This document shows positions 48,001 through 51,000 of a stretch of 64,000 nt of DNA, in pieces; the stretch's first letter is position 1; each line of letters begins with the position of its first letter. A program made the position numbers. The stretch is taken from positions 800,001 to 864,000 of the forward strand of contig CM000433.1 in the NCBI GenBank assembly GCA_000165345.1, written 5' to 3'.

Positions 48001-51000
48001 TATTATATAACTCATCTGCACAATCCTTGTTTCCAATAAACTCCCACATTGTTTTTGGCCTTGAAAGTTCCAGCTTCACTTTATAATGTGAATTTTCAAT
48101 GTCATTCCATGTATTTCTTTCAAATTCAGAAATATTTATCATTTCCAATGCAACTTCAAAATCTTCACCTACAAACTCCAACAATTCCAACTCTGTAAGC
48201 TTAATTTGCTGCCCAATTCTAACTCCACGTAAATTCTCAAAATGAACAGCATTATTGTCTCGATCAATTTGAAGTTTATGTAAGGAGTTTTGATGTCCTT
48301 TCTCTCTAGGCATTGAAAGATCTTTAAGCTTTTCCATAACCTCATTATATGTTGAGGGACAAATCACATAGTCAGCTCTTGATGAATAGTAATCCAGAGT
48401 TTTAGCTCCATACCATCTTAATTTCAATATTAGTTGTCTCTTACTATGATACAAATATTCTTCATCCCCAAGTAAACAAACTTTCTTATTGCCAAAAAAA
48501 TCCAAGTAAGGATTTCTATTTTGTTCAAATTCAATTTTGGATTTTCTAGGTATAAGCTTAAGCGATTCTCTTATATTCTTAACATATAAATCATCAAATT
48601 CTGTATTTTGTGTATCTTCTTGTTTGCAATCACTTGGATATTGGTACTCCTTTCTATATATTGGGAATTCTTCAAAAAATATTCGATTAATCTGAAAATT
48701 CTGTCTCCATTCTCTTCTCTTTTTTAATAGGTTTTCCTTATTGACTTTGTTTGAAGAACTAGAATTTAAAGGTAAAGATGAATTACTTTGATTTGAAGGA
48801 TTAATGACTGAACTTGAGTAGATACTTGAATTAGATTGTACACCAGACTTAAATCTACTCACACTCCTTTTTCTTCTTTTATTTGATGTGCCTCCACTAC
48901 CAGAATCCCCAGAATTTAGAATTTGGCTCCAACTTAATACTGATTTCATCTTCTTTTCTTCCTTACTATCTATATTTGGACTAATATTTTCATCTGATTT
49001 ACTCGCTGAGTACATTTTCCTTCGTAATAATTCAAATTAAAGACAGTTTTGTGTTATATTTATATTTAGCTTGATTCTTCCTTTTACATTAATCAGGCAT
49101 TTGCCTGAAAACTCAAGTCTAAAGAAAATTGAAAGAGCTTCCAATTATTGACCTTAATTCCTAATAAATCCACATCTTAATCTTACTAAATGTCAATACT
49201 AACTCTAAACTACCAAGTTTTTTAGCTTTTTTTTGCCCCAAATAATTTCTTTTGCTATTAAAATTCTTATTTTTAACACGTAATTGCCCACATTTTCATG
49301 TAAGCGCAAGTAACTTTGGCGCCAAATACGATTTTAAAATATTTCTTTAAATGTTGATTTAAAAACTTGATTTAAAAGTTTTTATTCTCGATATAATGCA
49401 GGAACAAAACTCAAATAAGAACAGAGGAATTTTTATAGTATTAGAAGGAACAGATAGGTAAGTTTGTTAAAATTTAAATATTAAGAGGGGTGGAGAAGAA
49501 ATAAATATGAAATTGGGGGTAAGAAGAGGGGGATATGCTGGCAGAAAGAGAGAAAGGAATTCCTTTATCTAAAGTTAGTCAAAATTACTAATGGAGGAGA
49601 GGGATTCCCTTTTTATGAAGTCTTGTTAAACATTGCTAACTTGAATATTTGTTTAGATCCGGAAAAACCACTCAATCTAAGAAAATATACGACTACCTTA
49701 TTAGTATTGGAAGAAAATGTGTTGAGACTAAATTCCCAGGTACGTATCATTAAGAAAAGTTACCATTAGTATATTTGTCTCAATTTAAATTCAGATCGTT
49801 CAACAAATATAGGAAAAATGTTGGATGGTTATTTGGGTAAATCTATTAAAATGGCACCTCAAGTTTCTCATCTACTATTTACTGCAAACAGATGGGAACT
49901 CAATAACTATATTAAGGAGAACTTAGAAAATGGAATTGACGTTGTGTGCGATAGATACTCATTCTCAGGAATTGCTTATTCTTCGGGAGCAATTAATCTA
50001 GATTTTGAATGGTGTAAATCTAGAGAGCAAGGCTTAATTTCTCCAGATATTGTTGTTTTTCTAGAAGTTAATTTAGACTTATCCTCTACTAGATCAGGCT
50101 TTGGTGTAGAAATCTATGAGAATATTTCAGACCAAATCAGTGTACGCAAAGTCTATCAAAAGTTCTCAAATTATTCTTTCTGGAGAAACATTAATGCATC
50201 TCAAAGTCCTGATGTAAGTTTAAACATTTATTCAACTTATTATTCTTTTAATTCTAATATTATTTTTGATTCCACATATTTATTTCAATTAACTAAAATA
50301 AAATATCTACAAAATTAATCATAAAAATTAATCTTCATAATTTTCTTATTCATCAACACCATATAAACAGGATGTTTTTAAAGAAATTGTTCCTCATATT
50401 GAACAAGTTTTCCAGAATATTAAGCCAATCTCATATCTTTGGGATGAAGACTAGGAAAATTGCATGCATTTGGCGCCACATTTCTAATATTTATTTATAT
50501 ATCTATTAATATTATAGGCTTAAAAAAGATTGTGTGTGTGGAAAAGGGTAAACTTTCAGTTTACCGATGTAAAAAAAAAGTTTGTTGAAATAAAAAAAAA
50601 AGGAAGGGGATTTTGAGGATATTTTTCAGGAATTTGAAAAAAAAGGAAAGCTTTTAATCTGTTAATTTGCATTAAGTCGACTCTCTTTATAAGAATTAGT
50701 TTAAAGCACTTAGGACTCTAAGAACAAGTTCCTAGAGAAAAAAAACTTATTCTCTAATTGAGAATGAAATAATGATGAGAAGAGCCTATTGTTTTCATAT
50801 TTAAGGGAAAGAAGTGAAATATTAAACAAAATTGAAGAATATTACCCCGCCCCAATGTTTTGTAGATTTTTTGATCAGTTATTTGAATGTTGTAGACTTC
50901 CGAATGAAAGCGGATCAAATATTGAGCCGGAGTTTGAGTTTGAAGAACTTATCAAAAATAATCCCCAATGTTATGGAATGATGAATTATATTCATTCTTC

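Follow-up and report, generated by a model that had tools for sequence, protein, structure and literature searches.

We analysed a 64,000-nucleotide (nt) stretch of Cryptosporidium parvum chromosome 5 (GenBank assembly GCA_000165345.1, contig CM000433.1, positions 800,001 to 864,000 of the forward strand; hereafter the window, in whose numbering all positions are given) and describe here a plus-strand gene at 49396-50454. We are highly confident that this locus is a single-copy gene for thymidylate kinase (TMPK, the kinase of thymidine monophosphate or dTMP, EC 2.7.4.9), composed of four exons and three introns. Exon 1 (49396..49457, 62 nt), which has a homologous exon in all nine Cryptosporidium species compared, carries the start codon, residues 1-20 and two nucleotides of the Arg21 codon, and with them the first half of the P-loop (EGTD-R). 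It is followed by intron 1 (49458..49656, 199 nt, phase 2, GC content 0.33), which reads GTAAGT...CTAAC...TTTAG. Exon 2 (49657..49739, 83 nt) supplies the last nucleotide of the Arg21 codon, residues 22-48 (SGKTTQ...KFP) and the first nucleotide of the Asp49 codon, and is separated by intron 2 (49740..49794, 55 nt, phase 1, GTACGT...TTCAG) from exon 3 (49795..50213, 419 nt). The latter begins with the last two nucleotides of the Asp49 codon, encodes residues 50-188 and contains Arg50 and Thr52, the segment HLLFxANRWE, the D101-R102-Y103 motif and the LID region. After intron 3 (50214..50370, 157 nt, phase 0, GTAAGT...AACAG, GC content 0.17), exon 4 (50371..50454, 84 nt) encodes residues 189-215, nearly the whole C-terminal helix of the kinase fold, and the stop codon TAG.

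Scripted splicing showed that the four exons (62 + 83 + 419 + 84 nt) join into a 648-nt coding sequence (CDS), which stays in frame from the ATG at 49396-49398, the first ATG after an in-frame stop 12 codons upstream, to the TAG at 50452-50454, and yields a product of 215 amino acids (aa). By their GT and AG ends and by the restoration of the frame upon their removal, all three introns are of the U2-type GT-AG class, and their removal at 49457/49657, 49739/49795 and 50213/50371 would join the four exons. Each intron is 1 mod 3 in length and contains in-frame stops, so that translation of an unspliced mRNA would terminate right after codon 21. The original prediction, made from the sequence of the window, had proposed this four-exon model, and we could confirm every one of its junction coordinates together with the 648-nt spliced frame and the consistent phases (2, 1 and 0). 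The sequence likewise bears out its claims that intron 1 splits the P-loop EGTDRSGKTT, within the Arg21 codon (AG|A), that intron 2 splits FPDRSTNIGK, within the Asp49 codon (G|AT), and that the last 27 aa lie in exon 4. Its account of the splice sites was right for the donors (GTAAGT, GTACGT and GTAAGT for introns 1 to 3) and for the YAG acceptors (TAG, CAG and CAG), but not in placing a T-rich tract before every acceptor, since the tract preceding the intron-3 acceptor (CATCAACACCATATAAACAG) is A/C-rich. It had also remarked that the open reading frame (ORF) track sees the third exon alone, and indeed the mechanical six-frame ORF list contains a single entry here, 49818..50318 (166 aa), which corresponds to exon 3 from Met57 with read-through into intron 3. 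A strong 5′ splice-site consensus is expected in intron-poor species such as C. parvum (PMC2483917).

The spliced product was then compared with TMPK profiles, a check that the original prediction had proposed. It matched the Pfam family PF02223 (Thymidylate_kin) with 146.3 bits over profile positions 1-185 of 185 (cut-off 27) and the NCBIfam equivalog TIGR00041 (dTMP kinase) with 114.4 bits over positions 3-196 of 196 (cut-off 83.25), thus lying above both cut-offs, whereas exon 3 alone reached 90 bits over positions 42-178 of PF02223. In a search of the Protein Data Bank (PDB), residues 6-212 aligned to residues 5-211 of Plasmodium falciparum TMPK (PfTMPK, 2wwf) without a gap over 207 residues and across all three junctions (E=2e-53), and human TMPK was matched with an E-value of about 1e-44. 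The full-length match to PF02223 and the gapless alignment to PfTMPK across the junctions indicate that the four-exon structure is not due to chance.

The motifs of the spliced product point to the same family. Its P-loop, G18-T-D-R-S-G23-K24-T25, follows the Walker A pattern G-x4-G-K-[ST] (PMC3169407) and becomes complete only once intron 1 is removed; G18, G23 and K24 are invariant in an alignment of 27 eukaryotic sequences. In type I TMPKs the P-loop Asp is directly followed by Arg, as in human GVDRAGKS, whereas type II enzymes carry Gly at that position and an Arg in the LID (PMC3169407). The Cryptosporidium P-loop reads GTDRSGKT, with Asp20 followed by Arg21, and by this feature the product is a eukaryotic type I TMPK. 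Moreover, R50, F77, R81 and D101-R102-Y103 align with human R45, F72, R76 and D96-R97-Y98, and all of these are invariant or at least 90% conserved among the 27 eukaryotic sequences. We take the positions of R50, F77 and R81 to be the dTMP-binding residues of the human enzyme, in line with structural literature on human TMPK, and human Arg45, the counterpart of Arg50, is presumably a ligand of the dTMP phosphate. A P-loop Arg of the Arg21 type is the catalytic Arg of type I TMPKs. The ORF is intact, and the C. parvum product keeps the conserved residue in each of the 31 columns found invariant among eukaryotic TMPKs.

The structure predicted with AlphaFold from 27 eukaryotic homologues (database proteins) had a mean predicted local distance difference test score (pLDDT) of 94.7 and a predicted template modelling (TM) score of 0.91. 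The helix 187-203, contributed almost entirely by exon 4, was modelled with a pLDDT of 96-98, and the alignment of exon 4 with the PfTMPK C-terminus extends through the conserved L-W. Searching the PDB with Foldseek, we obtained 2wwf as the best match (TM score 0.91/0.94, root-mean-square deviation 1.2 Å), and the top 50 matches were all thymidylate kinases. The predicted alpha/beta fold of nucleoside monophosphate kinases, with CORE, NMP-binding and LID parts, superposes on solved TMPKs. P. falciparum TMPK (2wwf, 2yof), from a different genus, shares about 43% identity, the same type I P-loop (DRSGK), the DRY motif and the length. Human DTYMK (1e2d and others) is about 40% identical; its Asp15-Arg16 corresponds to Cryptosporidium Asp20-Arg21, and it differs by small indels in the LID and the C-terminal part.

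The four-exon 215-aa model is not new, as it is the current public annotation. We found that an identical protein (100% identity, 100% coverage) has been deposited as QOY41831.1 (locus CPATCC_002432) and WRK32543.1, and that 215-aa proteins clustering with it at 90% identity or more are deposited for C. hominis (OLQ18481.1, PPA63153.1, PPS96903.1), C. meleagridis (POM85163.1, KAK9172778.1) and C. tyzzeri (TRY51465.1). In the IOWA-ATCC assembly, CPATCC_002432 lies on CP044418.1 (chromosome 5), and its protein, its 1059-bp span and its gene DNA are all identical to the gene in the window; the surrounding 12.3 kb differ by 1 mismatch, and the window, from an older gapped assembly, has a 100-N gap. 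A brute-force search for GT-AG introns near the exon ends returned just two full-length models, of 215 aa and 209 aa, indicating that the deposited 215-aa model must use the junctions 49457/49657, 49739/49795 and 50213/50371. We infer splicing in vivo at these junctions from the literature, in which the introns of the IOWA-ATCC annotation are stated by its authors to be 100% supported by RNA-seq (Baptista et al., PMC8744675).

The 2004-era entries at the same locus differ strongly from this model. Both the Iowa II entry XP_001388288.1/EAZ51226.1 (166 aa) and the C. hominis TU502 entry XP_665517.1 (165 aa) start in exon 3 at Met57, lack exons 1, 2 and 4, read through into intron 3 and have no P-loop, and therefore could not be active kinases. 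Users of these older sets see a TMPK without a P-loop, and could wrongly infer that the enzyme is absent or design wrong constructs.

To compare the locus within the genus, we set C. parvum beside C. hominis, C. meleagridis, C. ubiquitum, C. felis, C. bovis, C. ryanae, C. serpentis and the species represented by SRR31861040 (an SRA assembly), and re-spliced the syntenic loci by an exhaustive GT-AG search or by exact mapping. Three introns were found at the same codons and in the same phases (2, 1, 0) in 9/9 taxa. Their lengths vary from 67 to 245 nt for intron 1, from 54 to 120 nt for intron 2 and from 83 to 187 nt for intron 3, and their sequences diverge. With a pairwise aligner, exon identity was 96-99% and intron identity 88-95% against C. 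hominis; against C. ubiquitum the values were 73-77% and 62-71%, respectively. Gene order around TMPK was kept in all Cryptosporidium loci fetched. Several deposited orthologs are truncated: the TMPK entries of C. ubiquitum (194 aa) and C. felis (191 aa) continue into intron 3 and do not contain exon 4, that of C. ryanae (182 aa) lacks exons 1 and 4 and has intron 2 translated, and that of chipmunk genotype I (140 aa) consists of exon 3 only. Re-splicing of the truncated loci gave full proteins of 214-215 aa.

Two further features were seen in the SRR31861040 contig. Its TMPK exon 3 encodes CYRYSFSG in place of the CDRYSFSG of all others, with Tyr for the conserved Asp of the DRY motif, which may be either a genuine substitution or an error of sequencing. 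In this contig intron 3, with a length of 144 nt, contains no stop and hence is called as a single ORF together with exon 4.

Several points weigh against the four-exon TMPK assignment. The RNA-seq support for its junctions is second-hand and genome-wide rather than specific to this gene, and no mention of TMPK was found in the supplements of PMC4637869. Among Logan-derived sequences (SRA assemblies), no copy of the 215-aa protein is recorded. The dTMP kinase activity of the Cryptosporidium protein (ATP + dTMP -> ADP + dTDP) is a prediction; in the literature searched we found no paper that characterises a Cryptosporidium TMPK, the mentions being incidental alone and PMC2667270 concerning the P. 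falciparum enzyme, and the PDB copy searched held no Cryptosporidium TMPK structure. Finally, the public models disagree, as three recent GenBank entries (KAL5368828.1, WKS78052.1 and KAL3128298.1) use a different acceptor for intron 2, namely the AG at 49811..49812 on the plus strand. This acceptor, ATAG|G, arises from the Ile54-Gly55 codons and lies in frame 18 nt downstream; with it intron 2 would be 73 nt long, exon 3 would start at 49813, and a 209-aa protein would result in which D49-I54 are deleted and KFPGKMLDG replaces KFPDRSTNIGKMLDG. The +18 AG is present in 6/9 Cryptosporidium species and may be used at a low level as a minor alternative 3′ splice site. However, the 209-aa protein loses Arg50, which is at least 90% conserved, and Thr52, which is invariant, in the 27-sequence eukaryotic alignment, can be aligned to the solved TMPKs only with a gap of 6 residues in each case, and scores 126 bits against Pfam, a 20-bit drop from the 215-aa product. 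The 18 nt that it skips evolve as codons (Arg as CGT/CGC/CGA/AGA, Thr as ACA/ACG), and the AG itself is a by-product of the ATA-GG(N) codons for Ile-Gly that three species (C. ubiquitum, C. felis and that of SRR31861040) do not have. Moreover, the acceptor at 49795 is the first AG after the T-rich tract, and the first AG past such a tract is normally the one chosen. We therefore favour the 49795 acceptor and regard the 209-aa model as probably wrong or at most a minor isoform; that it represents the true or major mRNA seems to us very improbable.

Nor do we give more than the slightest credence to a single-exon gene formed by the 166-aa ORF at 49818-50318, with the flanking exons as chance similarities, even though this ORF is the only long one in the mechanical list and is what was deposited as XP_001388288.1/EAZ51226.1 and, for C. 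hominis, as XP_665517.1. It would lack the P-loop and the FPxRxT segment, it covers Pfam positions 42-178 only, and its last 34 residues are intron-3 read-through without homology. Exons 1, 2 and 4, in contrast, are present in nine species, correctly ordered and with frameshifts that match, and are better conserved than the introns. Exon 4 also gives a C-terminal helix that is modelled with confidence and can be superposed on solved TMPKs. The comparative data thus effectively refute the single-exon reading. A decaying or non-functional relic, in a parasite that obtains dTDP and dTTP from its host, is conceivable in so far as C. parvum imports host purine nucleotides and tolerates the loss of several nucleotide-pathway enzymes (PMC6800313). 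Against this stand the intact ORF with 31/31 eukaryote-invariant TMPK columns kept, and the splice sites and phases, which are kept in nine species while the introns have diverged further than the exons; in addition, the same study reports no uptake of host thymidine and EdU (5-ethynyl-2′-deoxyuridine) nucleotides (PMC6800313). We consider a relic to have almost no chance of being correct, and the four-exon gene with the 49795 acceptor is the model used below.

The original prediction had called three introns unusual in an otherwise intron-poor genome, which is numerically fair. RNA-seq raised the share of intron-bearing C. parvum genes from 4.3% to 10.8%, with 688 introns in 3,865 genes and 2-10 exons (mean 2.6) per intron-bearing gene (Isaza et al., PMC4637869). 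With a mean CDS of 1.78 kb, this corresponds to roughly 0.1 intron per kb of CDS genome-wide, against 4.6 per kb in TMPK, about 46 times as many, and the four exons of TMPK are within the reported range. To place the introns in a wider frame, intron positions were obtained by exact mapping of annotated TMPK genes of other eukaryotes. The orthologous TMPK gene of the apicomplexan Theileria parva (AAGK01000002.1) has six introns, of which introns 1, 2 and 6 correspond to Cryptosporidium introns 1, 2 and 3 by alignment column and phase, and at intron 1 even the exon-side junction nucleotides are the same (TAG|...|ATC). The three further T. parva introns (3, 4 and 5; 33-39 nt) lie inside the region equal to Cryptosporidium exon 3. 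The position and phase of Cryptosporidium intron 2 also occur in the annelid Helobdella robusta and the basidiomycete Suillus brevipes. One or both of these species also share T. parva introns 3 and 4, which are absent in Cryptosporidium. Because two internal T. parva introns are shared with opisthokonts, they have been lost in the Cryptosporidium lineage.

Judged from these positions and phases, the three TMPK introns appear to be retained ancestral introns and not recent oddities. In this scheme five or more of these introns would already have been present in the apicomplexan ancestor. Loss of the internal introns in the Cryptosporidium lineage would then have fused ancestral exons into exon 3 (419 nt), whereas the 3′-most intron and both 5′ introns would have been kept throughout the genus. 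Ancestral retention with internal loss is the simplest reading of the intron map. Parallel insertion at identical sites and phases is a formal alternative to ancestry; it would need three coinciding sites and is unlikely. TMPK is thus a tidy example of ancestral retention plus internal intron loss in a genome that lost most of its introns.

The persistence of exactly these three introns in all examined species may reflect selection rather than chance survival, an idea that we hold to be quite doubtful; under it, splicing-dependent control of the dTTP supply, or a regulatory sequence in intron 1, would be possibilities. Intron 1 (49458-49656) is 62% purine, and its GC content of 0.33 compares with a genome intron mean of 22%. 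It contains the G-runs AGAGGGGTGG, TTGGGGGTAAG and AGAGGGGGAT and the GAGA-like run GGCAGAAAGAGAGAAAGG, which are similar to G-box-like and GAGA-like promoter motifs described in the literature. Across the clade of C. parvum to C. ubiquitum the purine bias is retained, but the sequence is poorly conserved. Sequence constraint on intron 1 was considered and rejected, as its identity is 93% to C. hominis and 83% to C. meleagridis, compared with 97% and 88-90% in the flanks. It is the least or nearly the least conserved segment, in which composition alone is kept, and we see no strong evidence for a functional element in it. An RNA gene inside the introns was rejected as well, because an Rfam search (E-value mode) over 48900-50900 returned only a chance-level miRNA match outside the gene.

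With regard to the metabolic role of the enzyme, the TMPK step would be common to both dTMP routes of the parasite, salvage by thymidine kinase and synthesis by DHFR-TS. Thymidine kinase and DHFR-TS are each dispensable in C. parvum, and no import of thymidine nucleotides could be detected (PMC6800313). Since TMPK lies downstream of both dispensable dTMP sources, it is a plausible choke point, more so than either of them, and by the same reasoning Cryptosporidium TMPK is plausibly essential. The original prediction had also pointed to the relevance of the gene for the annotation of pyrimidine-salvage drug targets, which is a reasonable inference. PfTMPK also phosphorylates dGMP and azidothymidine monophosphate (AZT-MP) (PMC6366710). 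Human TMPK is the host enzyme, and a selective inhibitor would have to exploit differences from it. The 215-aa model is the correct basis for protein expression, structural studies and the design of inhibitors. Correction is needed for the 209-aa models and for the truncated entries of C. ubiquitum, C. felis, C. ryanae and the chipmunk genotype. The added value of our analysis is thus curation, in showing which public models are wrong, together with a small evolutionary point, the retained ancestral introns.

The gene is flanked by two E2F-like sites, neither with an assigned strand. The palindrome TTGGCGCCAA (49316..49325) lies 71-80 nt upstream of the TMPK ATG and is kept upstream of TMPK in 8/9 species, and the second site, TTGGCGCC (50470..50477), lies 16 nt after the TMPK stop. 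TTGGCGCC matches the E2F motif of C. parvum, the most abundant known upstream motif (PMC3734150). We found 8 sites in the window, with 14 strand matches against 0.17 expected, an abundance consistent with E2F as the dominant C. parvum promoter motif; the further sites are at 11045, 12414, 21136, 26464, 45799 and 60916, and most are perfect TTGGCGCCAA palindromes. The palindrome about 75 nt upstream is probably a promoter element, and this putative element would drive TMPK expression. After the TMPK stop, a GGCGCC E2F-like site occurs at a distance of 2-22 nt in 9/9 species, and the distance to the next ATG is more variable, about 250-380 nt. The post-stop site is probably an upstream element, or an element between the untranslated regions, of the downstream 258-aa gene (ATG at 50855), and could mark a dicistron boundary like those reported in bioRxiv 10.1101/2025.01.17.633476. 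In that work, E2F motifs were described in peaks of accessible chromatin (ATAC-seq), in bidirectional promoters and between same-strand genes, and both TMPK-flanking sites therefore fit a known pattern.

The neighbouring genes are a divergent 950-aa gene on the minus strand (46163-49015), which shares a 380-bp E2F-containing intergenic region with TMPK, and the 258-aa gene (50855-51631), the next gene after TMPK on the plus strand; a Pfam search gave no match for either of the two products. Further away, a 692-aa minus-strand gene (43530-45689) has a 2160-nt span in IOWA-ATCC, which exceeds its CDS by about 81 nt, and it therefore carries an intron. Among the seven genes contained entirely in this 13-kb stretch, two are spliced. 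In the region matching the 692-aa gene we also observed an array of 24-nt tandem repeats at about 43321-44007, with a consensus like TCAGCATCACCACGACGAACACCT, which runs into the 100-N gap at about 44016-44115; beside that point, the gap-free IOWA-ATCC assembly has a different, non-repeat sequence.

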